From a virus: DNA of 64,000 nucleotides. A model generated the notes under the pieces. The model had not been told where the DNA came from. It did no database searches and was given only the letters and a program-made list of their open reading frames with translations. Below are positions 15,313-43,005 of the stretch, one piece after another (positions within the stretch are counted from its first letter, which is position 1; the number at the start of each line of letters is the position of its first letter). Location of the stretch: positions 32,445 through 96,444 of IMG/VR virus record IMGVR_UViG_3300034198_017033; one strand, 5' to 3'. A program made the translations under genes and the position numbers.

Positions 15313-15337
15313 AAAAAGGGTCTTTACGACCCTTTCT
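15313..15337 (-). terminator. hairpin terminator (gggtc tttac gaccc) overlapping the stop of 15324-16262
   Basis: Stem-loop flanked by A and T runs. Confidence 0.45.
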
Positions 15338-16262
15338 TAATTTCAGTAACTCTACCCTTAATGGCAAAGTTCTTTATTTTTTGCCATTTGGTGATATCAT
15401 TCGACATCACTGGTTTTCCACCATCTGGGTTTATCGCAATTGTTATATGTGGAATCGCATTGGTTGATGGATAACCTTCAACCCTAACAGCCATAGCCAT
15501 ATCGCTAATCCCTATAGCTTCAACATACAAAGTAACTTCTTTACCTAAATCTTCTTGGTTTGGTACTGGTTTACCAAACACTATAGTCATGTGGTGCGCA
15601 ATTACTTTCCAACCATCAGGTATCATACCCTCAATTCTTGACAACAAAGCTGCTCTAGACCCACCATCCAATACAACAGCAGAATACAAAATGTTTGATT
15701 CTTTGTACATGTCTTTCGATTCTAAAACGCTTTTAAGCGTTAATGGACCTTGACCCTTGTGTGATTCAATCATTGATTGTATTTTTTCAAGCGGTACACC
15801 ATGAGTGTTTCTTTCAGCTAATTGCTCAGCTGTAAGACCAGCTGTACCTATATCCACAAACTTTATGTTGTTGTCAGCCAACCCCATTTCCAAAGCAGCC
15901 TTAATAGCGGCCTTTGATTCGTTTTGTTTGATGTTTGTGTTATCTAGGATAACTGGTGAAACACCTTCTTTTAACGAACCAACAACGTTTTTTAAATTGG
16001 TAGAGTGAGCTCTTGACAATGGTGTAAAGTCTTTAGATTCAAACATTAATTGAAAGAATTTGTTGTAATCACCTTGTGACTCTATAACAGCATCAGTTGA
16101 ATGGATTACTCCTTCACCTACTAGTTCTTTGGCTTTTGTTGATTTACCCGAGCCTGGTATACCACGCATCACGATAAGCACTTGGTCTGGTCTTGAAACC
16201 GCAACCCCTAATGAATTCTTTAACATACCTTCTCTTAATATTGTTCTTATTTCTTTTTTCAT
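15324..16262 (-). CDS. polynucleotide 5'-kinase fused to a 2H (LigT/CPDase-like) phosphoesterase domain
   Basis: P-loop VMRGIPGSGKST as in the T4 Pnk kinase domain. The C-terminal half carries two H-x-T-x motifs (HMTIVF and HITIAI) typical of the 2H superfamily. N-terminal motif MKKEIRTILREG. Confidence 0.7.
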   Translation of the reverse strand: MKKEIRTILREGMLKNSLGVAVSRPDQVLIVMRGIPGSGKSTKAKELVGEGVIHSTDAVIESQGDYNKFFQLMFESKDFTPLSRAHSTNLKNVVGSLKEGVSPVILDNTNIKQNESKAAIKAALEMGLADNNIKFVDIGTAGLTAEQLAERNTHGVPLEKIQSMIESHKGQGPLTLKSVLESKDMYKESNILYSAVVLDGGSRAALLSRIEGMIPDGWKVIAHHMTIVFGKPVPNQEDLGKEVTLYVEAIGISDMAMAVRVEGYPSTNAIPHITIAINPDGGKPVMSNDITKWQKIKNFAIKGRVTEIKKGS

Positions 16263-16263
16263 G

Positions 16264-16278
16264 ATGCAAATATACTAC
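16264..16278 (-). promoter_or_regulatory. -7 promoter element directly abutting the ATG (leaderless arrangement)
   Basis: gatgcaaatatacta. Only about 5 nt separate the -7 box from the start codon at 16262. Confidence 0.45.
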
Positions 16279-16300
16279 TTATTTTTTAACTATACAAAAA

Positions 16301-16978
16301 TTATTTATAATAGTCTTGCCAAACATCATTATTTAATCCGTAATCAATCATAACAATCGTGTCTTCACCATTTCTTTTTACAAGACCATATGTGTTAAGT
16401 TTACACAAATCACCAACTGGAATATCATAACCACCAATAAAACTTAACATTTCATAAGTAAATTCATCTTCCCACATAGCTTCATAAACTTCTTTGCTTA
16501 CATCAGAACTAAACCATGAACCTCTTTTTGGGTTTATTTCATCATGATGTTTTCTAAGGCCAGCACAATAATCAGCAAATGTAAAACCAACAACTCTTTC
16601 AAATATTGCTGGCGTTACTTTTTTAGCCAACTCCATTTCAACCCATAAATTATTTTGGTCATAAGCAAATACTTGTGCTGTGATGTCTTTTAAATCATAG
16701 TAATTTGAATAATCAATTTCAATTTCGTTTTGTGCAAGACCCTTTTTATTTCTCGCAATCTTAAGCACTTTAGTATCGTCAACCATATAGACAATCCTAG
16801 ATGAGCCAGATGATATTCTTTTAAGTCTTTCTTGACAGTATTGGATTCTTTTGTTAAAACTATTTAATTTTGAAAATTCTTCTAAATCAAAATTGGATGG
16901 GTAATCCTCTTCTAAATAAGATTCGATTACCTCATGTACTAAATTCTCTGATAATTTTTGTTTAATAAAATCTTTCAT
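16301..16978 (-). CDS. hypothetical protein with the shared N-terminal motif
   Basis: 225-aa ORF beginning MKDFIKQKLSENL. Confidence 0.5.
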   Translation of the reverse strand: MKDFIKQKLSENLVHEVIESYLEEDYPSNFDLEEFSKLNSFNKRIQYCQERLKRISSGSSRIVYMVDDTKVLKIARNKKGLAQNEIEIDYSNYYDLKDITAQVFAYDQNNLWVEMELAKKVTPAIFERVVGFTFADYCAGLRKHHDEINPKRGSWFSSDVSKEVYEAMWEDEFTYEMLSFIGGYDIPVGDLCKLNTYGLVKRNGEDTIVMIDYGLNNDVWQDYYK

Positions 16979-16980
16979 AT

Positions 16981-17775
16981 TTACACTTGTTTTCTATATT
17001 GAACGTAATTTCTTAAAACCCATACAACTACATTGTCAAAATCATCGTTCTCATATAAGATACGACCACTCTTTGTGCTATAAACCGCCCAATCAGCATT
17101 CTCACCTCTTATTATTGGTATTATGTTTCTAGCTGTATTACCATAAAAAATAACTTGTGGTTCCTCATCACTATAATGCCATAATTCTATACCAGATGCT
17201 CTAAATATAACAGCTTCTTTACCATATTTAAAACCAGAACCACGATTGCTATGTGCATATCTATCATATCTCTCAATATCATAAGCAAAATTATAACCAC
17301 CATATTTTTTTTCGAACTCTCCCAAATGTGTTGTTAACGCCAATTTATCAATTTCATCAACACCATATTTAAAACCTTGTCTTGCAATACTCTCAGCATT
17401 ATCAGTGAAATGAATTAACCATTGATTCTTAACAAGTCTTGGGTTATCAAAATAGGCCCATGCTGGATAATCAGAGTCTGGAACGTTTAGTGTGTTTTGT
17501 TCAATTTCTCTAAATAACCATTCAGCAAATCTATTGTATAATTCTGGGTTTTTATCAAATAGAATATCTGATATTTCATATGTTTCACCCTCAATATCTG
17601 TTTCTATACCTTCTTCATCTAAGAACCTATCAAATTCATATGGATATTCATGTGGTAAATAAGACTTCTTTTGTTCATCTGACATAGAAAAATATCTCTT
17701 AAGAGATACCATGTCTTGATTGATATACTCTTTTAAAATATTTTCTCTAAGCAAATTTTTAATATATTTTTTCAT
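16981..17775 (-). CDS. hypothetical protein with the shared N-terminal motif
   Basis: Start taken at MKKYIKNLLREN (ATG at 17775). The longer ORF-track version would overlap tRNA-Ser. Confidence 0.5.
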   Translation of the reverse strand: MKKYIKNLLRENILKEYINQDMVSLKRYFSMSDEQKKSYLPHEYPYEFDRFLDEEGIETDIEGETYEISDILFDKNPELYNRFAEWLFREIEQNTLNVPDSDYPAWAYFDNPRLVKNQWLIHFTDNAESIARQGFKYGVDEIDKLALTTHLGEFEKKYGGYNFAYDIERYDRYAHSNRGSGFKYGKEAVIFRASGIELWHYSDEEPQVIFYGNTARNIIPIIRGENADWAVYSTKSGRILYENDDFDNVVVWVLRNYVQYRKQV

Positions 17776-17819
17776 TATCAATATTTTTAAATAAATATCT
17801 AGAAATAATGAATAAGACG

Positions 17820-17906
17820 TGGTGGAGAGTATGGGATTCGAACCCATGGGCCGAACTAACGACCACGGATTAGCAATCCGCTCCATTACCACTCTGGCAA
17901 CTCTCC
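17820..17906 (-). tRNA. tRNA-Ser (anticodon GCT), class II, CCA encoded
   Basis: Acceptor GGAGAGT/ACTCTCC. Anticodon loop TTGCTAA. T-arm GGTTCGAATCC. Long variable arm. Confidence 0.8.
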
Positions 17907-18110
17907 ATAAATAAAATAACAATCCCGCCCTTGGGTCGTGACGGGCTACAAAGGGATTAGTGGAATTCCGTGTGTAAGTCACCACTGTACCAGTCCGTAT
18001 CTACCTTGAATTTAATCAGTCACTGTTGGGAGGCTACCCCTATCAACACACCTAGTTTCTTTTCAGGAATATCTTGAAGGTGAAACAAACCTTGATTGCT
18101 ATTTTATTTG

Positions 18111-18183
18111 TACCCCCACAGGGATTCGAACCCCGATTGGACATCTTAGAAGGATGTTGCATTTCCATTTATGCTATGGAGGC
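18111..18183 (-). tRNA. tRNA-Arg (anticodon TCT)
   Basis: Acceptor GCCTCCA/TGGGGGT. Anticodon stem ACATC/GATGT with loop CTTCTAA. T-loop TTCGAAT. Confidence 0.7.
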
Positions 18184-18232
18184 ATATTGTTAGCCAAATG
18201 ATACATATAAATTATAGATTTGACTGATGTTG

Positions 18233-18305
18233 TGACTCTAACAGGATTCGAACCTGTATTTTCGATTTCGTAGACCGAGGTCCTATCCAGTTGAACGATA
18301 GAGCC
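18233..18305 (-). tRNA. tRNA-Arg (anticodon ACG)
   Basis: Acceptor GGCTCTA/TAGAGTC. Anticodon stem TCGGT/ATCGA with loop CTACGAA. T-arm ACAGG-TTCGAAT-CCTGT. Confidence 0.75.
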
Positions 18306-18310
18306 AATTT

Positions 18311-18383
18311 TGGTACCGAGTATCGGAGTCGAACCGACTTGACCATCTTTATGAGGGATGGCTCTTTTCCTATAAGCCTCGGC
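18311..18383 (-). tRNA. tRNA, probably anticodon CAT (Met/Ile2 type), CCA encoded; the fold is imperfect
   Basis: T-arm GTCGG-TTCGACT-CCGAT. The anticodon region CATCC-CTCATAA-AGATG has a C-A mismatch at the loop-closing pair. Confidence 0.5.
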
Positions 18384-18650
18384 ATTTGTGAATGTGGTAG
18401 GGTATTCTCCTACAATTGTGGTGGTTAACTAGTCCCATGCTCCACGCCAGTTTTTCGTCTGGTGCTGTTGTAGTTTATCAGCATTAACACATTCTTATTT
18501 TTTTGTTCTTTTCAATTTGTGCTTTGATTCTAGCAATCTTTTCTGGACTTGGATTTCGGTCTACCGTATAAGATACACCCATTTTATCCAAGTAATCATA
18601 AAGACGCTGCATATCAGCTTCACTTGTCTTTTCCATCTTCTTTTATTTTG

Positions 18651-18724
18651 CGGGGCCGATGGGATTCGAACCCATGTAAAAGGATTAACAGTCCTCCGTA
18701 TTAGACCGCTGCTACGACAGCCCC
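18651..18724 (-). tRNA. tRNA-Asn (anticodon GTT)
   Basis: Acceptor GGGGCTG/CGGCCCC. Discriminator G. Anticodon stem-loop GAGGA-CTGTTAA-TCCTT. Confidence 0.75.
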
Positions 18725-19266
18725 TTGTTATTTCTTTCTTCTTCGTGTACTTCTCTGTGACAATTAGCACAAACTAAAATACATTTATCTAATTCTTTTT
18801 TTATTTTTTCCCAAGATGTACAATGACCTTTTCTGCTTATTAAAAAATCTTTTTCATTTGGGTCCATATGGTGAAACTCTAAAGCACCTATGTATTTATT
18901 ATAACCACATCTCTGACATGAACCGCCTTTGTATTCAACTGCCATCTCTTTGACTTTTTGTCTTCTTTTTACAACGGCTTTAACAGCTTTTTCTTTCCTC
19001 TCTTCTTCGCTTAAATAGACTCTTTTATTTTCAGTATATTTAGTTACAGTTGAAGCTCCAATCCCGAAATGTTTAGCTGTTTCAGCTTTACTATGAGTTA
19101 AATAATACTCATTAATTTTAGAAATTAAACTGTCAGTTATAACCTTACCACCTAAACCATTATTGTTAATGTGATATGATACGGTGCTTTTAGCACAACC
19201 CAATTCTTTAACAATTTCATCAATTTTTAAACCTTTTTTTCTTAATTCTAATATTTTTTCTTTCAT
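18712..19266 (-). CDS. HNH endonuclease with an N-terminal HTH (homing-endonuclease-like), inserted in the tRNA array
   Basis: HNH motif CQRCGY...EFHHMDP...LVCANCHREVH. N-terminal HTH IDEIVKELGCAKSTVSYHI. Confidence 0.6.
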   Translation of the reverse strand: MKEKILELRKKGLKIDEIVKELGCAKSTVSYHINNNGLGGKVITDSLISKINEYYLTHSKAETAKHFGIGASTVTKYTENKRVYLSEEERKEKAVKAVVKRRQKVKEMAVEYKGGSCQRCGYNKYIGALEFHHMDPNEKDFLISRKGHCTSWEKIKKELDKCILVCANCHREVHEEERNNKGLS

Positions 19267-19333
19267 AATTTGTTTTTATTATAAATATAATAAATTCGAA
19301 CAAAAAGTCAATAGATTAACAAAAAAATTTTCG

Positions 19334-19419
19334 CTCTGGCTGTAGGATTCGAACCTACGTTGAGGGTGTACCCTAGCAGATTAACAGTCTGCTGCCATCG
19401 TCCACTCGGCCAAACCAGA
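19334..19419 (-). tRNA. class-II-like tRNA (long variable arm), anticodon GTT, discriminator G
   Basis: Acceptor TCTGGTT/AGCCAGA. D-arm GCC-GAGTGGACGAT-GGC. Anticodon arm GCAGA-CTGTTAA-TCTGC is one base from the E. coli tRNA-Tyr arm GCAGACTGTAAATCTGC. Variable hairpin GGGTACACCC. T-arm GTAGG-TTCGAAT-CCTAC. Confidence 0.5.
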
Positions 19420-19525
19420 ATTTTATATTTTTATCAATACACCGAGTACCACAATTACGGTGCGCCTCTGGTCCATTCGCCAGCGTTGCTGTTTTTACCC
19501 GTGGTTACACCATTTGATAGGGTGT

Positions 19526-19598
19526 GGTCCCCTCGGGACTCGAACCCGAAACCGTCGCGTTATGAGCGCGCTGCGCTAACCAATTGCGCCAGAGGACC
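19526..19598 (-). tRNA. tRNA-Met/Ile2 (anticodon CAT)
   Basis: Acceptor GGTCCTC/GGGGACC. D-arm GCGC-AATTGGTTA-GCGC. Anticodon loop CTCATAA. T-arm TCGGG-TTCGAGT-CCCGA. Confidence 0.7.
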
Positions 19599-20645: not shown

Positions 20646-20715
20646 ACTAATAAATATATTACATTTTGTAAAAGTGCGGATAATTTTTACTATTCACCGC
20701 ATGTGTAAATTTTTG

Positions 20716-25176: not shown

Positions 25177-26349
25177 TTATTTTAATAATTTTTCAAAGTT
25201 AGCTGTTTCCATTTTTTGGATGGCTTTTCCCAACTCAGGACTTGGTTTCAAATCAAATTTTTCCATAGCCTCTGGTCCGCTAACGCTAAGTCTATATTGT
25301 TCAAAAGCGTTTAACAATTTTTCTGGTATGTTTTCTTTCTCACCAAATTCTCTAATTTGTTTATCAGAAACACCAGCAGTTTGTTGCATTTTTTTCAACA
25401 AGTATGCGGTATCAACACTCAATTTTAAGAATGAAATTAAAAACACAATCGCTTTTATTTCGTCTGCTGAGTATTTCAATTCATTTAATTTTCTTCTTAA
25501 CAAATCAATTTCGTTATCTTTTAATAAACTAGCCAATTCAACAATGTAATTGTCAACTTTACCAGAGTTTCTCATGTATGATTTTTTATTCAATAACATG
25601 TTAGGTAACACCCATTTGAATAAGTCATATTTATCTAACATTTCCATGTATTTTTTAAATGACTTAGCTGAGATTAATCCTTTGATAAACTCATCTCTAA
25701 TACGCTCACCAGAAATACCTTCAAGACTTGCATCTTTTTGTAATGCCATATCTGTTGCTGGGTCTAAATCAGAACCAAATCTACCAGCAAATCTAATCGC
25801 TCTTAGAATTCTAAGCCTATCTTCACCAAATCTATCTTCTGGGGCACCAACAGTTCTCACAACACCGTTTTTAAGGTCGTCTACACCACCTACAAGGTCA
25901 ACTATTTCTTTTGTGTCTATATCATAGAACAAAGCGTTGATTGTAAGGTCACGTCTTTTTACATCACCATCTATATTTGTAAATTCAACACTGTCTGGTC
26001 TTCTACCAGAACCAATATCATTTCGAAACGTAGCTACTTCATATTCTCCTTGGTCAGTGAATACGTTGATAACACCAAAAGCTTTACCAGTTGGTAGGGT
26101 TCTGAACCCAGCATCTTGCATCATTTCTTCTACTTTGTCAGGAACAGCATCTGTAGCTAAATCAAAATCCTTAGGTGTTTTTCCTAATAGGGCATCGCGC
26201 ACAGCTCCACCAACCACATATAATTTATATCCGTTTTTGGTGAACACCTTTTGGATTTCAATTATATCTGATGGTATTTGGAAGTCAAATTTAATTCTTT
26301 CTTCCATTGTAAGTCCTTCTCTAAGTATTTGTTTTATCTGTGTTTTCAT
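25177..26349 (-). CDS. CCA-adding tRNA nucleotidyltransferase (class II)
   Basis: Head-domain motifs GGAVRDALLGKTPKDFDLAT and RRDLTINA. Start MKTQIKQILREGL carries the shared N-terminal motif. The -7 box abuts the ATG. Confidence 0.75.
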   Translation of the reverse strand: MKTQIKQILREGLTMEERIKFDFQIPSDIIEIQKVFTKNGYKLYVVGGAVRDALLGKTPKDFDLATDAVPDKVEEMMQDAGFRTLPTGKAFGVINVFTDQGEYEVATFRNDIGSGRRPDSVEFTNIDGDVKRRDLTINALFYDIDTKEIVDLVGGVDDLKNGVVRTVGAPEDRFGEDRLRILRAIRFAGRFGSDLDPATDMALQKDASLEGISGERIRDEFIKGLISAKSFKKYMEMLDKYDLFKWVLPNMLLNKKSYMRNSGKVDNYIVELASLLKDNEIDLLRRKLNELKYSADEIKAIVFLISFLKLSVDTAYLLKKMQQTAGVSDKQIREFGEKENIPEKLLNAFEQYRLSVSGPEAMEKFDLKPSPELGKAIQKMETANFEKLLK

Positions 26350-26350
26350 T

Positions 26351-26363
26351 TTGCAAAGATACA
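26351..26363 (-). promoter_or_regulatory. -7 promoter element (ttgcaaagataca) only 4 nt from the ATG
   Basis: Consensus motif immediately adjacent to the start codon at 26349. Confidence 0.45.
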
Positions 26364-26386
26364 ATTTTATTTTTAAAAAACAAAAA

Positions 26387-28339
26387 TTAATACATATTTT
26401 TACCTAACAAGCCTTCACGATACATTCTAGTTTTTAAATCTCGAACCCATCTGTTTCTATATTTTAAAGGTAAATTATTGTAAACAACTCTAATCGTTAC
26501 TGACATATTCATCATTTCATTAAAAGTTAAATTATCCCAAACATCTTGATATTTTCTTTTTAATTGATGAATATTATGTATTTGTGCTTGTATTTCTAAA
26601 GTATCAGCATCAATTGGTATGTTATTTCTACCAACTTTTTTATTTTTTTTGATGAATTTATCAACAGCTCTTTTTATTCTATTGTTGTTAAACGTATCAT
26701 CTAACCAATGTGTTAATTCATGATGTATAGAACCTTTGATTTTTTCTTCCGATAAATCTGATTTTATTTTTTTAGCATCATCCCATTCTAAATTATCTAA
26801 AGCTTTATCAAAATCATTATTGTTATCTTTTATAAATTCTAACGCTCTTTTAGATGCTGTAATTGAAATTGTTTTAGTGTTTGGGTTATAAATATTGTTG
26901 TCAAAGTTAATTAATATTTTACAAGGGTTTATTTCATTTGCTTTAACACATAATGGATTACTTAAAATACTAGTGCTTATAATTGTGTTATAAAACATAC
27001 TATTATTTAATTTTCTAGTTTTAAGTAATGTATCTAAATCCTCAGCAAAAAAATTATCATAAATTAAATCTACATCATCGTCTATATTGTAAAGAGCTTC
27101 AGTTATCAAACCTTCTCTGAGTGTATTTTTTACTTCGTTTAAATCTAATGATAACTGGTTAGGGTCAACGAATTTTTGTTTTTTCTTTTTTTCTTTTGGT
27201 TTTTTTACTCCAAAGTTCATTACTTTCATTGCAGTTGGTAAATCAATTAGGTACTCTATGTATTCGTTAACACTTCTACCATAGTCCTCATCGTCATCAT
27301 GAATATCTCTGTTTGACATAGTATAAAGTCTTTCATCACCAGTTTCACCATAATCTGAATAATCATATCTAAGTGGTTTTGTAAGGACATGCATAAACAA
27401 TTCAGAATCTGAAGGCTCTGAAAAATCTATTATTATATAACAATATCCGTTAGTTGAATTCCTAGACCAATCTTCCCAATTAGTAGAACCACCTTTTCTA
27501 TTATAAGTAAAACACCAAAGAGAATTACAACCAATTTCTTTTATCCCATTTGGACCAGAAACTTCAATAATCATTATGTTACCTTTATTATATTTAACTT
27601 TTAATTCGTCATAGTTTTCTTTATCATGTTTAAGTATTTGTCCTATTTGTTTTCTAGTTAAGTCAACACCACCAAGTAAGTTTTCTTTCTCTTGTACAAA
27701 ATCCAATACATCATCAAGTGTTGTGTTGTTAGTAAACATCTTTCTTAATATGCTGTTTCTAGCTTCTTCGTTTCTATTATTCAACTGACTAATATGCGCA
27801 TCAGCATGTTCTAAATCATCTCTATAACTATTCATTTGGGAGCTATCTCTTTCAGTTCTAATATCAGTTTTCATATTACGTTTAGCTATTGAAGGCCATT
27901 CATTAAAGATATTAAGTATTTTTTCACGCTGAATCAACCCTCTAATTAAATCATTTGTATCTTGAACACCATTGATGTTGAAACCTTTGATGGGGAATAC
28001 ATTTTTATCGTATTCTTTTAATTGGTTGTATATTGGTCTTAATTTTTGCAAATCAGGTGTACTCATCACATCATTTTCTGGTTTTTCAGTTTCTTGATGT
28101 TCTGGGTCTAATTGTTTAAGAGCCCATTCACCAGTTCTATGATTATTGGTTAACATCGTATAGTAGATGTCAGTCATTATTTTGGTATATGGGTCACCAT
28201 TGGTGATACGTGTAATTATTTCTCTAACTCTAGGTGATAACTTCCCAGAATTGAAATAAACCTTATCAGCCAATTGTAAGTTTTCTCTAAGTAATTGTTT
28301 AATTAAATTCTTCATTTTTTTTAAAAGGGTTTGTTTCAC
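26387..28339 (-). CDS. large hypothetical protein with the shared N-terminal motif
   Basis: 650-aa ORF. The N-terminus contains MKNLIKQLLRENL. Confidence 0.5.
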   Translation of the reverse strand: MKQTLLKKMKNLIKQLLRENLQLADKVYFNSGKLSPRVREIITRITNGDPYTKIMTDIYYTMLTNNHRTGEWALKQLDPEHQETEKPENDVMSTPDLQKLRPIYNQLKEYDKNVFPIKGFNINGVQDTNDLIRGLIQREKILNIFNEWPSIAKRNMKTDIRTERDSSQMNSYRDDLEHADAHISQLNNRNEEARNSILRKMFTNNTTLDDVLDFVQEKENLLGGVDLTRKQIGQILKHDKENYDELKVKYNKGNIMIIEVSGPNGIKEIGCNSLWCFTYNRKGGSTNWEDWSRNSTNGYCYIIIDFSEPSDSELFMHVLTKPLRYDYSDYGETGDERLYTMSNRDIHDDDEDYGRSVNEYIEYLIDLPTAMKVMNFGVKKPKEKKKKQKFVDPNQLSLDLNEVKNTLREGLITEALYNIDDDVDLIYDNFFAEDLDTLLKTRKLNNSMFYNTIISTSILSNPLCVKANEINPCKILINFDNNIYNPNTKTISITASKRALEFIKDNNNDFDKALDNLEWDDAKKIKSDLSEEKIKGSIHHELTHWLDDTFNNNRIKRAVDKFIKKNKKVGRNNIPIDADTLEIQAQIHNIHQLKRKYQDVWDNLTFNEMMNMSVTIRVVYNNLPLKYRNRWVRDLKTRMYREGLLGKNMY

Positions 28340-29510
28340 TTATGTTATTTGCTTCGTAGTATAAATCCCAATCTAAAATAGATTCATTGGTTGTTCTAGC
28401 GTTTATTTTTTGCATTACATCTGACTGGTTATCATCTTTTGCCATAGCGTATAATTTATGAATTTTCTTTAATAACTTATCGGTTACGGTTTTAAAGTTT
28501 TTTTGTTCATAATTGAAGAACTGTTGATAATTATCAAATCGTTTTAAAGTGTCAACATAATCTTTAATTTCTTTTCTAGAAACCGAATCACCTTGTAATA
28601 ACATAGCAACAAAAGGGACATTTAATCTAGCAGCGGCTTTATAAGACTCAAATTTACGCTTTTGTATTAATTCATATGTAAGTTTCAATAAAAGACTAAT
28701 TAAATCATCCTCAGATGAAGGTATTTTGTACCCAGCATCATCCAACACCTTAATTATCCTATCTTTGTGTTGTTTCAATTCATTTATCAACTCATCTAAA
28801 GAGAATGAATTTATCCTTTTTAGGTTTTGATACGTGTCATCAGTTTCCAAAAAATTTAAAAATTGTTTTTTGGTGATACCTACTTGTTCTATATTTGATG
28901 CTACTTCTGTTGCTCTAACTAAATTTTCAGCATTAGTAGTAAAATATAAATCATGTATAAATTGGTCCAAAGGTGGTATGTTTGTTCTCATATCGGTAAA
29001 AACACCATATTCACTATTTCTATGTATTTTAGACACTTTCTTTTTATACATATCGTAAGCATGTTTTAACTCATGAGTTAAAGCCATTGTTAATTTAATC
29101 TTTTCTTTAGCAAATTCTTCTAATACTTCTTCTACCGTTGTTGTTTTGTTTATTGCAATTTCAATGAATAGATAAACAGAGCCGTCTTTACCTACAGAAA
29201 TATTTCTAAATAATTGAACATCAAACTCGCTTTTATTTCTAAAAGCCATACCATAAACTTTAGGTAAATTGTTGTCATGACGGTTTAATACCTTAGTATT
29301 TAATTTAAGTTTAACTTTATTAAACACAGCATCACCAACTTTATACTCACCAGTTATTTTAATTTTATTTGGAATATCAGTCATAAGCATATCTGCTGGT
29401 TGTTGGTTTAAATAATCTAAAACTTTATTATAAACTTCAACACCAACATTTGTTATATTGTCTGGCACACCTAATGCCTCTCTAAGTAATTGTTTAATCG
29501 TATCTTTCAT
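28299..29510 (-). CDS. hypothetical protein with the shared N-terminal motif
   Basis: 403-aa ORF beginning MKDTIKQLLREAL. Confidence 0.5.
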   Translation of the reverse strand: MKDTIKQLLREALGVPDNITNVGVEVYNKVLDYLNQQPADMLMTDIPNKIKITGEYKVGDAVFNKVKLKLNTKVLNRHDNNLPKVYGMAFRNKSEFDVQLFRNISVGKDGSVYLFIEIAINKTTTVEEVLEEFAKEKIKLTMALTHELKHAYDMYKKKVSKIHRNSEYGVFTDMRTNIPPLDQFIHDLYFTTNAENLVRATEVASNIEQVGITKKQFLNFLETDDTYQNLKRINSFSLDELINELKQHKDRIIKVLDDAGYKIPSSEDDLISLLLKLTYELIQKRKFESYKAAARLNVPFVAMLLQGDSVSRKEIKDYVDTLKRFDNYQQFFNYEQKNFKTVTDKLLKKIHKLYAMAKDDNQSDVMQKINARTTNESILDWDLYYEANNISETNPFKKNEEFN

Positions 29511-29530
29511 ACCTATAAATATTCAATAAA

Positions 29531-30785: not shown

Positions 30786-30845
30786 TTGTTCTATTTGTTT
30801 TTTGTTTATAAATATATCATTTTTCTAAAAAATGTAAAGTGTTTG

Positions 30846-30918
30846 TAGTTCTAATCGGACTCGAACCGATATTTCTCCGTTTTAGAGGCGGGCGTATTCA
30901 CGTTAATACTATAGAACC
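30846..30918 (-). tRNA. suppressor-type tRNA with anticodon CTA (reads UAG), 73 nt with standard numbering, discriminator A
   Basis: Acceptor GGTTCTA/TAGAACT. D-arm GTAT-TAACGTGA-ATAC. Anticodon loop positions 32-38 are CTCTAAA (U33, A37). The anticodon stem is weak (3 GC pairs flanked by C-A pairs). T-arm ATCGG-TTCGAGT-CCGAT. Confidence 0.55.
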
Positions 30919-31525: not shown

Positions 31526-32464
31526 TTATTTAAGTTGGTTTAACACTGCTGTGCTACCCACAACTTGTGGTACCCTTGGTGTGTTAGGGTTGATGTCAAT
31601 CCATTTTAAGTATTCAACATACAACGGAGTGATTTCTTGTTTTCTAATTCTCATAGCTTCTGCTTGTGCTTTAGCCGCGATAATTGTTTGTTGTGCATCA
31701 CCATTAGCAATAGCCACTTTCTTTCTAGCTTCAGCTTCAGCTGTAAGAGCTTTTTGGTCCTCAGCTTGTGCTTGTTGAATCGCTCTAGTTTTAGCTATAA
31801 TTGTTTCTTGTAAGGATTGTGGTGGAACAATGTTTGTTCTTAATTGTGACACGGTAAACCATTTAGATAAACGCTTGTTACATTCAGTTTTAATCGCAGC
31901 TTCAAATTGTTCACGCTCGTTAAAGATTTTATCAACCTCCCATTTATTAGCAACGTCATTAATAGCACCAACTATGGCTGTTTGTAACCAACCTTGTTCT
32001 ACTGATTTAATATCCAAACGTAAATTCTGGAACATATCACCAACAGCACCAGCTTTTAATGAATAGTTAAAACTTGGGTGAATTGTCGCTGGGAAACCAC
32101 CTTTGGTTATAACTTGTTGTTTTTCATATCCAATAGTTTGTTGGAAAACTGGAAACTGATAAAGTTGTTCAGTCCATGTATTGAATACTACCCAACCAGT
32201 TTTGTATTCATACTTTGATACACCGCGTGCATCACCAGATAAGTTGACTTTGATACCTACGTTACCAGCATCGACCCTATCTAATTTGTAAGGTTGAGTA
32301 AAACCTAACGTAAGGCCCAAAACTAATATTAGTATTGGTTTAATTAACCAAACACTATTAAATTCTGTTCCCCAGTTGGTTTGTTTTGTGCTCGATTCCC
32401 TTGTGGAAAGAGCGATTACTATCGCCATTATTAGCGATAAAACAATAATAATTGTTGAAATCAT
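31526..32464 (-). CDS. SPFH/band-7 (prohibitin/stomatin-like) membrane protein
   Basis: N-terminal TM helix, SPFH core, and a C-terminal Ala/Glu-rich helix (TAEAEARKKVAIANGDAQ). Confidence 0.6.
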   Translation of the reverse strand: MISTIIIVLSLIMAIVIALSTRESSTKQTNWGTEFNSVWLIKPILILVLGLTLGFTQPYKLDRVDAGNVGIKVNLSGDARGVSKYEYKTGWVVFNTWTEQLYQFPVFQQTIGYEKQQVITKGGFPATIHPSFNYSLKAGAVGDMFQNLRLDIKSVEQGWLQTAIVGAINDVANKWEVDKIFNEREQFEAAIKTECNKRLSKWFTVSQLRTNIVPPQSLQETIIAKTRAIQQAQAEDQKALTAEAEARKKVAIANGDAQQTIIAAKAQAEAMRIRKQEITPLYVEYLKWIDINPNTPRVPQVVGSTAVLNQLK

Positions 32465-32748: not shown

Positions 32749-33426
32749 TTACGATAGTAATTGTATTTTACCTCTGTATATGTCTTTTATATTTGCAGTC
32801 TTTTCTGTGATATGGTCGATTACAACACCATCTTTAACTCTGTAGGTTCTTCGTTTATCACCTCTATCACCCTTCCCGATTTGGTCTTTTCTTTGTTCAC
32901 TAGCTTCATTATCATGACCGCTTCTATAAAAATCGTTTACTCGTTTTTTTAATTCGACAAGAGCTTCTTCTTTATTTTTATGTTGGCATCTTCCGTTTCT
33001 TACAACTTTAATACCTGTTGCTTCATGAGTTACAATTACTGTAGAGTCAGTAGTGTTGCGGTGCTGCCCACCTGGACCAGTCCCTCTAGTTGTTTCTAAA
33101 CGATATTCACTTGGATGTATCTCTACTTCTTTGTAATCGTTTTCTTGCATAAGTGCTACTGTTATTGAACTAGTGTGGACTCTTCCCTTACGTTCGGTTG
33201 GTGGGACTCTTTGCCACCTGTGGTTACCAATTTCGTTTTCGAAGATTTTTTTGACATTTTTACCAGTTAGTCATATGCTAACATAGCCATCTCTTTCTTC
33301 ATCGGTTATTCATCCGATGTTATTAATGTTTGCTGCTTTGGTGTAAATGTCTTTCATTTCACACACCAATAGCTTTGCATCGGTCCCGCCCTCTGCACCA
33401 CGAATTTCAAGTTTAATCTTTTCCAT
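32749..33426 (-). CDS. class I peptide chain release factor, RF1-like (domains 2-4 only), frame interrupted by two in-frame TGA codons (33312-33314 and 33270-33272)
   Basis: Conceptual translation [14 protein letters not shown]...[23 protein letters not shown]...[25 protein letters not shown]...GPGGQHRN...[15 protein letters not shown]. It has the PxT (PPT) and GGQ motifs. The first TGA aligns with the conserved Trp of the RF1 RRWRVEI block. Confidence 0.55.
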
Positions 33427-37334: not shown

Positions 37335-38366
37335 TTACAAACTTTCCGTTTGTTTTTTTTCGTACTCTTCTTTTAAATCGATTATAATAGCTTTTAAGCT
37401 ATCATCTAGAGTTTTTGGTATATTCACATCCAAAGTAACAATTAAATCACCACGTTTGTCTGTATTTAGCTCTCTGAGACCTTTAAACGGTATTTTAAGG
37501 TTTTGCCCAATTTGACTGTATTCTGATATTGGTATTCTAATTTTACCACCTTCTATGGTGTTTATTTCAACTTTATCACCCAATACCAACTGATGGTATT
37601 CTAATTTAAGTTTTAATTTTAGTTCCGAACCAACTCTAGTGAATTTTTCGTGTGGTAATTCGGATATTCGTATAATTAAATCACCTTCTCTTCCGCTTTT
37701 AACACCATGGCCTTTACCACCCATAACAAATGCCATACCATCTTGGATTCCAGTTGGTATGTCTACTTCAACTAGTTCTTGTTTTTTTACTAAACCACTA
37801 CCACTACAAGTTTTACATTCGTTTTTAAAAGTTGTTCCAGTACCACTACAAACATGACAATCATTTATGTTTTCCATAAAACCAAAAGGTGTTCTAGTGA
37901 CTTGTCTAATCTGACCACTTCCATTACATGTAGAACATTCTTGTGGTTCAGAACCACCATGTCCAGAACAGTCAGTACAAGAAACATTTCTATTGTAGTT
38001 ATATTTCTTTTTAACACCTGTAAAAATTTCTTCTAGTGTTAATTTTACAGTTAAGGTCATATTTTCACCAACGCGTTCTCTAGCTTGTTTTTGTCTAAAA
38101 AATTGACTGAACATATCATGGAAACCATTTTGCATATCATCATACCCACCTATATTATCATGAGAATGACCAAATCTATCGTATTTGGCTTTTTTATCTT
38201 TATCAGATAAAACTTCATAAGCTTCTGAAATTTCTTTAAATAGTGTTTCATCACCGCCCTTATCTGGATGGTGTTCTTTTGCTAATTTTCTATAGGTTTT
38301 TTTGATTTCTTCAGCAGTAGCAGCCTTATTAAGACCTAAAACTTCATAATAATCTTTTTTGCTCAT
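37335..38366 (-). CDS. dnaJ: DnaJ-family chaperone
   Basis: J domain KKDYYEVLGL...HPDK. Four CxxCxGxG zinc-finger repeats. C-terminal substrate-binding domains. Confidence 0.8.
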   Translation of the reverse strand: MSKKDYYEVLGLNKAATAEEIKKTYRKLAKEHHPDKGGDETLFKEISEAYEVLSDKDKKAKYDRFGHSHDNIGGYDDMQNGFHDMFSQFFRQKQARERVGENMTLTVKLTLEEIFTGVKKKYNYNRNVSCTDCSGHGGSEPQECSTCNGSGQIRQVTRTPFGFMENINDCHVCSGTGTTFKNECKTCSGSGLVKKQELVEVDIPTGIQDGMAFVMGGKGHGVKSGREGDLIIRISELPHEKFTRVGSELKLKLKLEYHQLVLGDKVEINTIEGGKIRIPISEYSQIGQNLKIPFKGLRELNTDKRGDLIVTLDVNIPKTLDDSLKAIIIDLKEEYEKKQTESL

Positions 38367-38421: not shown

Positions 38422-39081
38422 ATGACATATAGAGTTGTATTATTGTGTAACGGCGAATATAAAAAGACAATTCATAGAGCTAGAACCCTAGAAACTATTT
38501 TTACACGTTACCATAAAATAAAAGAAGAAAATAATGTTTTGTTTCCTAAACGTTTTGTTAATAGTAATAAAATTATACCTGTAAAATACGAGATTGCTGT
38601 GACAAAACCAACTGAAGAGGGTGATACATTTAGAACCCTTAGAGATGGTTATGGTAAGTTATACACTGAAGAACCCTTGGGTGATTGGACTATTTTAACA
38701 TCTCAAGATTATGAGCTTGAAGAAACATTTATGATTTATGGTATTGGTTATAAAAACGGTGAAAGACCAACAATACGTGAAATAGTTAAAAGACTTATGC
38801 TTAACGCACATTCTAAAAAAACTGTTAAACAAATCATAGTTGTTTATAACAAATTGTTAATATATAATGAGGACCAATTTGATATGGTTTTATGTAAGAA
38901 TTTAGAAGAAGCTCAAAGGTTACACCATACACTTGCTAAAATAGCTAAAAAACAAAAAATAAAAAGTCTTTTATTTATGGGGACAGCAACTAAGTCTAAT
39001 ATAGGTAGATTATATGATGTGATACATGATGAAACAGGTTGGCCTTACCCTAAAATACGAAGACAAAGTACGTTACATTAA
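38422..39081 (+). CDS. hypothetical protein (plus strand)
   Basis: 219-aa ORF followed by a terminator at 39081-39112. Confidence 0.5.
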   Translation: MTYRVVLLCNGEYKKTIHRARTLETIFTRYHKIKEENNVLFPKRFVNSNKIIPVKYEIAVTKPTEEGDTFRTLRDGYGKLYTEEPLGDWTILTSQDYELEETFMIYGIGYKNGERPTIREIVKRLMLNAHSKKTVKQIIVVYNKLLIYNEDQFDMVLCKNLEEAQRLHHTLAKIAKKQKIKSLLFMGTATKSNIGRLYDVIHDETGWPYPKIRRQSTLH

Positions 39082-39112
39082 AAAACCCAGAAAATTTCTG
39101 GGTTTAATTTTA
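39081..39112. terminator. bidirectional intrinsic terminator (cccagaaaatttctggg flanked by A and T runs)
   Basis: Stem-loop between convergent genes. Confidence 0.55.
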
Positions 39113-39298
39113 TTTAAATAAGTTTTCTAATTTTGTTACCAACTCAGCTATTCTCTTATCATTTCTATCTATTTGTTGTTGAATATTATTTGGTATATTA
39201 CCAGCATATTCAGATTTTAATTTAGAATTTTGTCTTTGAAGTGAATCACTTTCTCTAAGACAATTGTCATATATTATTGCTTTATCTTGATTATTCAT
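39110..39298 (-). CDS. hypothetical small protein
   Basis: Start MNNQDKAIIYDN. Confidence 0.35.
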   Translation of the reverse strand: MNNQDKAIIYDNCLRESDSLQRQNSKLKSEYAGNIPNNIQQQIDRNDKRIAELVTKLENLFK

Positions 39299-39629
39299 AT
39301 TTACCACAATTACAATCTCCACCGCATTCGCATGGATTATTTTCAATTTCAATATCTTCAATATCCATATCAACACCTACTGAAAACTGTTCTTGAATCT
39401 CTTTAATCATTTGTTGTACTTTCTCCATATCTGGTTCTGAAAGCATTACTGGGTTGATACATTCTACTCGTTCTTCACCAGTAGTTGGTAAAAAGAATGC
39501 CATCATGTTAGAATTTTTTTGTTCAATCATATGATTTACCGATTCGGCAAATGGTTGAATAATTTGTTGGTTTTGCATCATTTCAGCGTCCAAGTAAAAT
39601 ACTAGGATAAGTGGGTGGTTGTTTTCCAT
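39291..39629 (-). CDS. hypothetical protein with a C-terminal Cys cluster
   Basis: C-terminus NPCECGGDCNCGKYE. Confidence 0.4.
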   Translation of the reverse strand: MENNHPLILVFYLDAEMMQNQQIIQPFAESVNHMIEQKNSNMMAFFLPTTGEERVECINPVMLSEPDMEKVQQMIKEIQEQFSVGVDMDIEDIEIENNPCECGGDCNCGKYE

Positions 39630-39630
39630 T

Positions 39631-39873
39631 TTAGTTTTTATTAAATAATGTTATTTCTTCTATTGAATTAAGGATTTCTTTTGTGTTGTAATCGTAAAAA
39701 TGTATTAAAATTAGTTCGTTAACAATTTCTTTTTTTTCATTATCACCAATAGCAGTTTCACATTTTAAATTTTGGTCATCAATTTTAACATAGATTAAAA
39801 ATTCACTAATATATTTACCTTTTTTATTACTACTATAATAACGGTCTACCTCTTTAATTAATAGTTTTTTCAT
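39631..39873 (-). CDS. hypothetical protein
   Basis: 80-aa ORF. Confidence 0.4.
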   Translation of the reverse strand: MKKLLIKEVDRYYSSNKKGKYISEFLIYVKIDDQNLKCETAIGDNEKKEIVNELILIHFYDYNTKEILNSIEEITLFNKN

Positions 39874-40151
39874 TTTATTTTAAATATACCGAAAAATAAA
39901 AAATATGTAAATAATATAAAACAAAAAAACCCTCCATATATGGAAGGTTTTATTTTAATTGTCTCAAGATGTTGGGGCTTTTACTTCTAAACCCTGTTTG
40001 AAGTTTCCCAACATTAAAAATAAATTTAGAGGTTGCTGGGAAGACCTACATTAACTAAGTACTGAATCATAAATATTTGTAGATAGCTTGCGGTATACAT
40101 CTTTCAATGACAATCTTGATAAAAATGAGGCAGTTTCCCACCTCACCCTTA

Positions 40152-41606
40152 TTAAACAGTTACGCTAGCGTAACGCTCTGAGCCGATAACTGACATCATC
40201 ATTGCTAATGGTGTCATTTCTTTACCAGCCAACAAGTTGGTAAGTAAAGCTGGACTGAACCCAGATACAAGCGCAGTTCCATTTTTATCAAAGTGAACTG
40301 GTTTGTTGTTATCACCTCTTGATTGAATGTTCCAGAAAACGATTTTTGGCACTTCGTACCCAGCATCGTTATACATTTTTTCAATCATTTGTTGAGCAGT
40401 TGGGTTCCAAGAACCTTGACCACCCCAACGACTACCTACAGCAGAGTCAAACTCCATATCTGATAGGATTAACATCATTGTTGGCATTTCCTCAGGTGCA
40501 ACATTAGAAGCAACAGCTTTATTTAAAATCAACTTGAAAGCTGCTTCTAAATTAGTACTACCACCCCATTTTGAACGTGCCATTTGACGGTATCTTTCTG
40601 ACAAACTACCTTTCACTATTTCTAATGATGGTGATTCGTGGAAAGTAATAAACGCGTCTTTGAATGGACCAACGTTTCTTTCTGAAATGTATAACCCCAA
40701 TGAGATTGATACATCCATACAAGTAACATTAGCGTTACTACCCGCTGGTGTTTCCATAGAACCAGATACGTCAACCAATGGCAACACTCTTTCGTTGTTG
40801 TTTTCCATGTAGTTTGGTAACGCGTTCCATTGAACATCAGCACCTTTGGTATTACCTTGTTTAAGGTTTTTGATGATGTCGTATGGGTATACGGCACCAG
40901 CATTGATTTTGGTTTCACCTTTTTCAACACTTGTTAAGTATTCTTGAAAACGAGCTAAGTCGTTTTTAGAGAACGCTTTCATGTAATCACTCATAGCTTT
41001 TGAAGGCAATTTAGAGTAATCAATTAAAGAGAATTCTCTAGAACACATTAATTGCTCAACTGTGTTAGAATTTTCAACTAACATTTTACGGTAGTCTTTT
41101 GGTGACATACCCATATATTTTCTTAAAGTGGTTGCCCATCTTTTTTTCTCACGATTACCAACATTTGGACGTGGAGCCCATTTTGCAGCTAAACCATTTT
41201 TACTAGTCAAACCTTCAGCATATAAACCTAACGCTTGTGTTTCTAAAGGTGTTCCAATCATCATAAATAAATCATCCCAACGACCAAACTCACTAATCAA
41301 ATGTAAGTTCTTAGCAAGAACCTCTGTACGGTTTTTACCTAAATATTCAATTATGTCTCTGAAAATTTGTCTCTCACCAGCACCACCACGAACATCACGA
41401 GCCCAAAAAAGCAAACGCATAGCGTTTAACGGGTTCTCACCAAAAGCTTTGGTAAACACATTGATAAGTCTAGTTTTATCTTGACCTCTCATTGCACCAA
41501 TTTGAAAAAATAAATCAACACATAAATTCAAAGAACTTGAATTTGTAGTCATTCCGTTTTCAGTTAAAGAATTGTTAGTTTGCATAGCTTTTAATAAAGT
41601 GCTCAT
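40152..41606 (-). CDS. vWA-domain protein (DUF2828-like phage protein; possible distant Ro60/TROVE-like architecture)
   Basis: MIDAS-like PLVDVSGSME. Large alpha-helical N-terminal region. Confidence 0.45.
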   Translation of the reverse strand: MSTLLKAMQTNNSLTENGMTTNSSSLNLCVDLFFQIGAMRGQDKTRLINVFTKAFGENPLNAMRLLFWARDVRGGAGERQIFRDIIEYLGKNRTEVLAKNLHLISEFGRWDDLFMMIGTPLETQALGLYAEGLTSKNGLAAKWAPRPNVGNREKKRWATTLRKYMGMSPKDYRKMLVENSNTVEQLMCSREFSLIDYSKLPSKAMSDYMKAFSKNDLARFQEYLTSVEKGETKINAGAVYPYDIIKNLKQGNTKGADVQWNALPNYMENNNERVLPLVDVSGSMETPAGSNANVTCMDVSISLGLYISERNVGPFKDAFITFHESPSLEIVKGSLSERYRQMARSKWGGSTNLEAAFKLILNKAVASNVAPEEMPTMMLILSDMEFDSAVGSRWGGQGSWNPTAQQMIEKMYNDAGYEVPKIVFWNIQSRGDNNKPVHFDKNGTALVSGFSPALLTNLLAGKEMTPLAMMMSVIGSERYASVTV

Positions 41607-41645
41607 AATATTTGTTTTTAAAGTTTATTATTTATTTCAGTGATG

Positions 41646-41660
41646 CAAAGATACGAAGTT
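41646..41660 (-). promoter_or_regulatory. -7 promoter element (tgcaaagatacgaag) with an upstream gtcaaatttttttgcaactttttttt A-tract
   Basis: Consensus motif about 40 nt upstream of the ATG at 41606. Confidence 0.5.
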
Positions 41661-41729
41661 TTTTAGTCCGTGTCAAATTTTTTTGCAACTTTTTTTAAAA
41701 TATTTTTTTGTTTGTTGATTTTCAGTGAT

Positions 41730-42329
41730 TTAGGATACAAAGTTTTTTATATATTGTGTCCTATGATACCTACATGAGCCGTATTGTTTTATAGCGGCTA
41801 TGTGTCCAGCACTTAAATAACCCTTATTACCACTCCATTCGTATTGTGGGTGTAGTTTGTGTATTTTACCCATGTATTCATCACGTCTAACTTTAGCTAC
41901 TATAGCAGCTGCTGCTATACATGTGTATGTATCGTCACCCTTAGGTACTGTTGTTACTGGCGTATCTGAGTATTTTTCCCATACGGTGCCATCCACAAGT
42001 ATGTGTTCTGGTGTTTTGGTTAGTTTATCTAAACATAGGTGCATTGCTTTGAATGTTGCTGGGTTGATACCTATTTCGTTGATATCAATGGCTGAGACAG
42101 CTTCGCATACAACATCAATCGCATTATCCATAATTAATTTGTATGCGTCTTTGCGTTGTTTTTCGGTAAGTTGTTTGCTATCTCTTATTAGTTCTGATTT
42201 AAAACCCTTAGGCATTATCACAGCTGCTGTTACAACTGGCCCAGCGCCAGCTCCACGACCAACCTCGTCTAATCCGACTACATAATCGTAATCACCAAAG
42301 TCTTCAAGTATTTTCTTTGTCTTTGCCAT
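41730..42329 (-). CDS. rnhB: ribonuclease HII
   Basis: VVGLDEVGRGAGAGPVVTAAV matches the RNase HII N-terminal catalytic motif. DSK and later D/H residues are conserved. Confidence 0.8.
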   Translation of the reverse strand: MAKTKKILEDFGDYDYVVGLDEVGRGAGAGPVVTAAVIMPKGFKSELIRDSKQLTEKQRKDAYKLIMDNAIDVVCEAVSAIDINEIGINPATFKAMHLCLDKLTKTPEHILVDGTVWEKYSDTPVTTVPKGDDTYTCIAAAAIVAKVRRDEYMGKIHKLHPQYEWSGNKGYLSAGHIAAIKQYGSCRYHRTQYIKNFVS

Positions 42330-42360
42330 TAATTATTTTTGGCAAATATACTACTTTTTT

Positions 42361-42594
42361 TTATTCTTCGTAATTTTTTTTAACAAATTTTATTAAAATA
42401 CCACTAATTTCAACTTCAAATTCATCAACTGGTTCAAAATTGGTATTAACACCTTGTGTTTTTTGTAGTAATTCTAAGTTCATCGACAAGTGGGCTTTTG
42501 GATGTAATTGGTAGGTTAGCACCAGACCATTTTTTTCTATTTTCTCATTTTCGAATATTTCGGAAACTGTTTCAATTAATTTATCAAAGTTCAT
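42361..42594 (-). CDS. hypothetical protein
   Basis: 77-aa ORF. Confidence 0.4.
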   Translation of the reverse strand: MNFDKLIETVSEIFENEKIEKNGLVLTYQLHPKAHLSMNLELLQKTQGVNTNFEPVDEFEVEISGILIKFVKKNYEE

Positions 42595-42595
42595 A

Positions 42596-42811
42596 TTAAA
42601 ATTTAGTAAACACTTTTTTTATTGCTGATATTATTTTTGATGTGAAGCTTTTTTTAATCACTTTAGGTTTTGGGTTCTTTTTAATCTCATCACCAAGGCC
42701 GTTTTTAACTTCGTTTATAAATTGTGTTTTTTTAAGTGCTGTTTTATATTTTTCAACCAACACATCTTTATCAGCCAACGACTGTTCTCTACTTATTATT
42801 TTATCGTCCAT
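42596..42811 (-). CDS. hypothetical basic protein
   Basis: 71-aa ORF. Confidence 0.4.
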   Translation of the reverse strand: MDDKIISREQSLADKDVLVEKYKTALKKTQFINEVKNGLGDEIKKNPKPKVIKKSFTSKIISAIKKVFTKF

Positions 42812-42831
42812 ATTTTTTTTTATTAAATATA

Positions 42832-43005
42832 CTAGTTATTTTTGTTTTTGTCAATATAATTTGATTCATTATCAAACCCACATTTATGACAAACATACAA
42901 ATCTTCTTTTGAAGATTCAGATTCTTTCCAAGACCAACCACATTTTTTACATTTTATGATTCTATCTATGGTTTCTCTAAGTAATTTTTTTATAAAATTC
43001 TTCAT
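42832..43005 (-). CDS. small zinc-ribbon protein with the shared N-terminal motif
   Basis: Not in the ORF track (57 aa). Sequence MKNFIKKLLRETIDRIIKCKKCGWSWK...YVCHKCGF. It ends at a TAG. Confidence 0.4.
   Translation of the reverse strand: MKNFIKKLLRETIDRIIKCKKCGWSWKESESSKEDLYVCHKCGFDNESNYIDKNKNN

Follow-up and report, generated by a model that had tools for sequence, protein, structure and literature searches.

Why would proteins that have little else in common begin with the same short peptide? The question is raised by a 64,000-nucleotide stretch of viral DNA (IMG/VR record IMGVR_UViG_3300034198_017033, positions 32,445 to 96,444; this whole stretch is called the window below), in which seven proteins, all encoded on the minus strand, open with the motif MKxxIKKLLRExL (Table 1). 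The peptide common to the seven N-termini, termed the tag here, is 11-13 residues long. Searched with its relaxed core, [ILV][KR]x[ILVMK]L[RKS]E, the six translated frames of the window give seven matches and no more, each four residues past a start methionine. A position-specific scoring matrix (PSSM) trained on the seven tags scored them at 33.6-39.2 bits, with the next site at 11.9. For an independent PSSM we took 112 N-termini from other contigs, with the window and those closely related to it left out. This matrix recovered the same seven sites at 23.3-40.2 bits, while all other positions among the 57,066 in six frames reached at most 5 bits, a bimodal distribution with the seven sites on one side and all the rest on the other.

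The tag on these proteins is real and far beyond chance. The shared start had been reported in an earlier note made from the letters of this DNA alone, and both the core search and the two PSSMs confirm it. Two of the start positions deserve comment. The start at 17775 is confirmed, since a tRNA-Ser gene occupies 17820-17906. For the 642-residue carrier the motif is present as claimed, but the start given at 28339 is a mechanical GTG extension, and the methionine of the motif lies at 28315.

Table 1. Tags, an internal tag-like peptide and promoter elements in the window (positions are those of the window).
Feature	Sequence	Position	Strand	Context
Tag	MKKEIRTILREGM	16224..16262	-	Polynucleotide kinase + 2H/CPD phosphoesterase, gene 15324-16262
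Tag	MKTQIKQILREGL	26311..26349	-	CCA-adding enzyme, gene 25177-26349
Tag	MKNLIKQLLRENL	28277..28315	-	642-aa protein, no assigned function, gene 26387-28315
Tag	MKDTIKQLLREAL	29472..29510	-	403-aa protein, no assigned function, gene 28299-29510
Tag	MKKYIKNLLRENI	17737..17775	-	264-aa protein, gene 16981-17775
Degenerate tag	MKDFIKQKLSENL	16940..16978	-	225-aa protein, phrog_4301, gene 16301-16978; 23.3 bits
Tag	MKNFIKKLLRETI	42967..43005	-	57-aa zinc-ribbon protein, gene 42832-43005
Internal tag-like peptide	DLNEVKNTLREGL	27107..27145	-	About residue 391 onward of the 642-aa protein
Late box (putative)	ATATTTATA	29514..29522	-	3 nt 5' of the 29510 ATG (leaderless geometry), right behind a hairpin and T-run
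Late box (putative)	ATATTTATT	17790..17798	-	14 nt 5' of the 17775 ATG
Late box (putative)	ATATTTATA	43018..43026	-	12 nt 5' of the 43005 ATG
Bacteroidetes-type promoter	TTTG-N20-TATATTTG	16267..16298	-	Ends 4 nt before the 16262 ATG
Bacteroidetes-type promoter	TTTG-N19-TATCTTTG	26354..26384	-	Ends 4 nt before the 26349 ATG

The proteins behind the tag are unrelated, as the earlier note had also held. All-versus-all BLAST of the seven carriers found no paralogy except a weak match between the 642- and 403-residue proteins (E=0.001), and on this result together with Pfam and PHROG scans we rejected hidden paralogy. The kinase carrier matches Pfam AAA_33 and tRNA_lig_CPD, with the kinase domain starting at residue 29; the CCA-adding enzyme matches PolyA_pol (129 bits) from residue 43; the Pfam scan gave no match for four of the seven. 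In other phages, alignment with homologues of these two enzymes begins only at residues 25-43, and a CCA orthologue that has no tag is present among the sampled contigs (L036). In an AlphaFold2 prediction of the CCA-adding enzyme, residues 2-11 form a helix, the confidence score (pLDDT) is below 50 at residues 1-14, and the confident fold begins at about residue 17. The tag is, as modelled, an add-on helix flexibly joined ahead of the enzyme domains. It is kept among relatives: orthologues of the 642-residue protein in four sampled loci (L001-L004; 75-79% identity) all carry it, an orthologue of the 225-residue protein in L009 has a full tag (MKILIKNLLREAF), and the family of the 57-residue zinc-ribbon protein is tagged in L028, L045, L046 and L101 as well.

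The 642-residue carrier itself looks like a fusion. Its orthologues in L002-L004 are about 405 residues long, and those in L002 and L003 (around 10001-11221) stop directly after a tag-like DLNEIKKILRTNLFN where the window protein has DLNEVKNTLREGL and then continues for about 240 more residues. Proteins of L038 also end in tag-like peptides (MIKNMLRERFR and KNIRKILRS at their C-termini).

To follow the tag beyond the window, a degenerate back-translated DNA pattern was scanned against IMG/VR. More than 111 stretches matched, on uncultivated viral contigs of about 30% GC, and among the matches listed 119 of 119 sit at the start of an open reading frame, with the initiator methionine first. Clustered by BLAST, the carriers of the sampled loci (about 1.1 Mb) form 65 clusters, or at least 65 unrelated families. 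In a census of four-residue words over 658 families (2.4 Mb), LLRE appeared within the first 16 residues in 44 families versus 11 internally, and ILRE in 24 versus 4; no other set of N-terminal four-residue words came near these counts. Across 48 carrier families M1, I5, L9 and E11 are invariant and K2, K6 and R10 are conserved in at least 90%, and the conserved block spans residues 1-13.

The codons beneath this block are free to vary. Among the pattern matches listed, Ile5 is encoded by ATT (61), ATA (34) and ATC (7), and Leu9 by TTA (48), CTT (36), CTA (12), TTG (4) and CTC (2), and synonymous choice tracks genome usage within the degrees of freedom of the pattern. At positions 8 and 9 the pattern also permits phenylalanine codons; the viral set has none, whereas chance matches from cellular genomes often have them. 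The DNA 5' of the seven copies in the window shows no conservation. Thus, given the synonymous variation, the missing phenylalanine and the unconserved upstream DNA, the tag is selected as a peptide and not as DNA. Among bacteria and archaea the same pattern matched only 28 times in 596 Gb of genomes; about four of these matches are clade-like, on contigs that resemble mis-binned phage DNA. On this near-absence a signal encoded by the host was rejected. Neither does the tag (MKxLIKKLLRE) have the uninterrupted hydrophobic core of about 7-15 residues of a Sec or lipoprotein signal peptide, K, R or E recurring every 3-4 residues, and the signal-peptide-like N-termini that the window does encode look unlike it (e.g., MKKILIILTIFISL at 195).

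What the conserved residues resemble is a processing site of phage T4. The T4 prohead protease gp21 cuts after L/I-x-E, and T4 internal proteins carry N-terminal capsid targeting sequences (CTS) of 10-19 residues; in the CTS of IPIII, residues 4 and 7 serve targeting and residues 8 and 10 processing (PMC9026906). The internal proteins of T-even phages are diverse, and the CTS alone is conserved (PMC3012670). The tag ends in L-R-E, a fit to the gp21 consensus. The T4 sequences that we read (cut marked by a slash) are MKTYQEFIAE/A for IPII and IPIII, a start ending in ITE/A for IPI, and MAKINELLRE/STTT for the vertex protein gp24. When anchored on the glutamate, I5, L/I8, L9 and E11 of the tag fall on positions 4, 7, 8 and 10 of IPIII, although the two share just the MK start and this hydrophobic/Glu pattern and are too short for a homology statistic. 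The last seven residues of the tag, I-K-K-L-L-R-E, are identical to I-N-E-L-L-R-E of gp24 at five of seven positions, these peptides again being too short for such a statistic. The capsid protein of the tag-bearing phages has a conserved LL(T/S)E/ST (LINE in one sequence) that MAFFT places on the T4 gp23 site LTE65/A.

The genomic setting is that of a T4-like head. The head module in tag-bearing loci encodes proteins matching Gp23 (240 bits), Portal_T4 (250 bits) and Peptidase_S77, the gp21 prohead protease family (88 bits versus a cutoff of 27), and its order of portal, four small proteins, protease, acidic scaffold and capsid protein mirrors T4 20-67-68-21-22-23. One 362-kb contig, IMGVR_UViG_3300042502_001233, bears both such a module and orthologues of the tagged genes of the window (79% identity to the 642-residue protein), and a CCA-adding enzyme identical to that of the window is found on a 306-kb contig as well. 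A scan of IMG/VR with a capsid-protein alignment returned 568 related contigs, the 362-kb one among them. By capsid protein the closest cultured phage is Flavobacterium phage immuto, at 38% identity; a nucleotide search for cultured relatives gave no match, and the two regions of T4 that were scanned hold no PSSM site of 12 bits or more. Bacteroidetes-type promoters (TTTG ... TAnnTTTG) can be read straight from the window sequence. The clade comprises huge T4-superfamily phages, probably of Bacteroidota.

Several architectural details of this clade were observed alongside. The Gp23-type capsid protein (L052 11925-13763, with more than 70 orthologues in L116-L194) is about 600-630 residues long, and its Pfam Gp23 match covers residues 335-597 only, which points to a long and variable insertion behind the delta domain at the N-terminus. 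In some loci (L167 414-3413; L022 8697-10574) the large terminase has 999 rather than about 591 residues and the prohead protease 625 rather than 241, which suggests an intein or another insertion.

Gene location and predicted timing link the carriers to the head. The 79 head-module loci hold 69 carriers of about 21 families, and of the 65 whose position relative to the capsid gene could be given, every one falls 0-6 kb downstream, while the 10 kb upstream hold none. At 10-60 nt upstream of the ATG, 48/48 scaffold, 26/26 protease and 8/8 terminase genes and 35/35 genes of one tail-module family have a box, ATATTTAT[AT], as do all members of two other late families (18/18 and 14/14). Judged by this distribution, it looks like the late promoter of the clade (that of T4 is TATAAATA). 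The window has 24 such boxes on the coding strand and 11 on the other, often behind a hairpin and T-run; besides those in Table 1 they include 20649-20657 and 52656-52664. The carriers starting at 28315, 26349, 16978 and 16262 are downstream of late boxes in the same orientation, the last two in the same gene run as 17775.

The boxes also stand at a characteristic distance from the carriers. The late box before carriers is usually 3 nt from the ATG, and the core TATTTAT ends 4 nt before the ATG in 23 of 94 carriers versus 30 of 1068 other genes. The spacing between box and ATG has a sharp peak, 4 nt for TAnnTTTG and 3 nt for ATATTTATA; this predicted leaderless geometry is found in 3 of the 7 window carriers and 43 of the 94 in the sampled loci. 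Three leaderless carriers had been named in the earlier note; for 16262 and 26349 this holds, each having a Bacteroidetes-type -7 box 4 nt from the ATG, whereas the gene at 59977 is a primase that does not carry the motif, and the third carrier with a close box is instead 29510, whose box is of the late type. For the earlier note's suggestion that such genes might yield isoforms with and without the motif there is a single hint: an in-frame methionine occurs at residues 13-21 in 5/5 carriers with a host-type promoter, which represent just two gene families.

We lean, with modest confidence and from sequence comparison, toward reading the tag as a T4-type capsid-targeting propeptide that would be cut after Glu11 and would mark a large packaged, and probably ejected, proteome. 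The earlier note's idea of a CTS-like leader gains substantial, though circumstantial, support from a T4-like clade with a gp21-type protease, the cleavage consensus, the gp24 match, the late box and the clustering near the capsid gene; packaging and cleavage themselves stay predictions. The carriers' domains are effector-like, which speaks for the propeptide: four GNAT acetyltransferases, an Fe/Mn superoxide dismutase, NUDIX, ART-PolyVal, Zeta/AAA_33 kinases, an SprT-like peptidase and DHH are among them, and T4 Alt is a packaged ADP-ribosyltransferase (PMC5512222).

We infer docking, cleavage, packaging and ejection as the steps of such a pathway. An amphipathic basic helix (residues 2-11), flexibly tied to otherwise ordinary enzymes, would dock its carrier on the acidic scaffolding core of the prohead late in infection; cleavage by the prohead protease of the gp21 family would follow, directly behind the invariant Glu11 (L-L-R-E/x), and the mature enzyme would stay in the capsid and exit with the DNA at the next infection. 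Here the cargo would include the polynucleotide kinase/2H phosphoesterase and the CCA-adding enzyme, arriving before phage gene expression, where the pair could mend tRNAs cut by host defences. A bolder version, for which we see somewhat less than an even chance, makes the tag a capsid address label: Bacteroidota phages would pre-package dozens of enzymes (a tRNA-repair kit, ADP-ribosyltransferases, acetyltransferases, NUDIX, superoxide dismutase) and inject them with the DNA to disarm host defences, and the label may derive from the propeptide of a lost vertex protein, gp24. A BLAST search with the capsid protein gave one full-length copy per locus and no gp24 homologue in the head loci of the clade.

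Several points weigh against a capsid-targeting propeptide. The clade is uncultivated, and the case is built from sequence. L/I-x-E is a site of low information, and the residue after the glutamate varies (G, N, Q, E, S), unlike the A/S of T4 sites. The tag is very frequent, on about 5-10% of genes or families, and sits on housekeeping-type enzymes (CCA-adding enzyme, superoxide dismutase, NUDIX) that would be useful in the cytoplasm too. The kinase and the CCA-adding enzyme have host-type, presumably early promoters, as well as lying behind late boxes. The head module was located on the contig of a relative, outside the window. Finally, protein searches for cultured relatives gave distant matches only, all without the tag, and in the 100 of 160 kb of immuto that were scanned there is neither a tag nor a PSSM site of 12 bits or more.

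The alternative that survives best, which we nevertheless consider unlikely, is a generic interaction or localisation helix, unrelated to the capsid, that would tether many accessory proteins to one and the same partner. Candidates for that partner would be a chaperone such as the phage DnaJ at 37335-38366, a hub protein of the phage, a factory for replication or translation, or the membrane. Such a helix would agree with the hydrophobic face (M1, L4, I5, L8, L9) and the basic face (K2, K6, K7, R10) read from the sequences and with its detachment from the enzyme in the AlphaFold2 prediction. That some proteins have tag-like peptides internally or C-terminally, and that the tag is more common than a classical internal-protein set would allow, count for this helix as well. 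It leaves unexplained, however, the invariant L9 and E11, the I-x-x-L-L-R-E match to a cleaved T4 propeptide, the strict N-terminal position, the late-promoter link and the clustering around the capsid gene.

We think it improbable that the tag is a feature of leaderless mRNA translation, with the first 11 codons or the nascent peptide tuned to a 5'-terminal AUG in a host that makes no use of Shine-Dalgarno sequences. A promoter box does lie 4-7 nt from the ATG in the 43 of 94 carriers given above (most of the 7-mers ending exactly 4 nt before it); of 1068 other genes, 97 have one at 2-8 nt. However, the remaining 51 carriers have a full tag outside this geometry, untagged genes share it (e.g., the primase at 59977), it is the amino acids that are conserved while synonymous sites vary freely, and a compositional need would not fix the order I-K-K-L-L-R-E.

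Slightly less probable still is a degron or timing signal by which a host protease or a phage Clp-type ATPase limits the lifetime of the carriers. N-terminal signals of the form Met-basic-hydrophobic are known for ClpX, and seven related loci encode a ClpB/ClpC-like two-AAA ATPase of 479-1201 residues (L062 8718-10760, minus strand, and six others; phrog_4871 at 788 bits; domains AAA_2, AAA_lid_9 and ClpB_D2-small, with a UVR motif). Linkage between the ATPase gene and carriers was not seen, host genomes do not use the tag, and a degron would account neither for the likeness to the gp24 propeptide nor for the association with the head module and with late genes. Last, the negligible possibility that the similarity is chance, the compositional bias of an AT-rich genome (about 31% GC in the window, with K, I, L and E frequent), mere MKK plus Lys/Leu content, which the earlier note had itself named as a way to be wrong, or a repeated DNA element or recombination site is dismissed by the PSSM scans with nothing else above 5 bits, the four-residue census, the confinement of pattern matches to the starts of reading frames, the codon data with their varying synonymous sites, and the unconserved DNA upstream.

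Other genes and peptides of the window touch on the same themes. A dense set of RNA-repair functions is encoded there: an RNA ligase (phrog_548), an ATP-dependent DNA ligase, a gp63-like RNA ligase (phrog_562), the kinase/CPD and CCA-adding enzymes, and a 484-residue phrog_850 protein labelled 'RNA-binding protein'. A small protein with a GGQ motif, read from the sequence, might be a release-factor-like peptidyl-tRNA hydrolase; together with it the set lies at 7837-8889, 9552-10952, 13012-14136, 15324-16262, 25177-26349, 40152-41606 and 32749-33150. Among 15 tRNA genes, ARAGORN reports one with anticodon CTA (an amber suppressor, labelled Pyl) at 30845-30918 on the minus strand; in the longer open reading frames of the window TAG is the stop in 4 of 70 and TAA in 61.

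Further recurrent N-termini were also noted. Signal-peptide-like starts ending in SQ or GQ are found at 195-2715 (plus strand), 8971-9447 and 49454-49855 of the window (e.g., MKKILIILTIFISLRGYSQ), and a similar conserved family (MKKIFL...FSQT) adjoins the capsid gene in many head loci. A second peptide, MKxx(I/V)TExQxxxL, opens other unrelated proteins, often after the same late box; it occurs in the window at 49122 (MKKIKITKEQYENL) and in L008 563(-), L062 8698(-), L072 10446(-), L099 1918(-), L103 6769(+) and L017 429(+). Its I-T-E fits the gp21 rule and equals the T4 IPI cleavage site, so that it may represent a second class of propeptide. Two adjoining window genes on the minus strand, 22863 and 23821, share another start peptide (MNRKNKISIINKANILLENKFI and MRKFDKIKNIKKANLLSEQRYL), and a start of the same type is found at L114 3277(-) (MRKIDKLSNILNANFLFEQRYI).

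A literature search for the peptide strings of the tag found no description of the motif. CTS on diverse internal proteins of T-even phages are already known; what is new is the distinct basic consensus, its presence in an abundant uncultivated clade of huge T4-like phages, and its association with dozens of enzyme families that include tRNA-repair enzymes. If the tag is indeed a capsid-targeting propeptide, the head-carried proteome could be listed from sequence alone across the clade (more than 568 IMG/VR contigs with this capsid protein), and the packaged set would be of unexpected size and enzymatic character. Delivered by injection, the tRNA-repair enzymes would then counter anticodon nucleases pre-emptively, a new form of counter-defence, and the 11-residue tag would be a candidate loader of foreign proteins into Bacteroidota phage capsids, like the T4 CTS in E. 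coli. Should the capsid be the wrong destination, about 10% of protein families would still share a virus-specific N-terminal peptide under strong selection.

Among known systems, encapsulin cargo-loading peptides offer a non-viral parallel, in that a short terminal peptide sends unrelated enzymes into an HK97-fold shell; they differ from the tag in being usually C-terminal, in their consensus and in not being removed by a protease. The polyvalent proteins linked to MuF or portal proteins share several domains with the carriers (ART-PolyVal, SprT-like peptidase, GNAT, NUDIX) and are predicted to enter the host with the DNA (PMC5512222); there, however, the domains are fused in one giant polypeptide, whereas here they are separate proteins, each with its own short tag. 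The giant phages phiKZ and SPN3US encode a protease related to gp21; of their head proteins, about 50, many are ejected, and some paralogues share conserved N-termini (PMC5694885). Their propeptides, in contrast, are mostly longer than 100 residues, have no common short consensus and are cut at (S/A/G)-x-E, where the position two before the cut is small and not leucine.

The closest parallels are in T4. The gp24 propeptide has the same I-x-x-L-L-R-E and ends at residue 10, compared with residue 11 for the tag, and gene 24 lies directly downstream of gene 23, the place at which the carriers of the clade are concentrated; gp24 is a capsid-shell paralogue of gp23, which the carriers are not. The CTS of IPI, IPII and IPIII (MKTYQEFIAE/A; MKTFKEFTSTTTPVSTITE/A) differ from the tag in being neutral or acidic and one residue shorter, the tag being basic (KK...R), and in sitting on a few small basic proteins rather than on dozens of families that include sizeable enzymes, and for the tag cleavage and packaging are predictions. 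Overall, both are nonetheless N-terminal MK leaders of the 10-19-residue kind on otherwise unrelated proteins, both end in a gp21 site of the form hydrophobic-x-Glu with coinciding hydrophobic positions when anchored on the glutamate, and both belong to phages with gp20, gp21, gp22-like and gp23 head genes (PMC9026906, PMC3012670).

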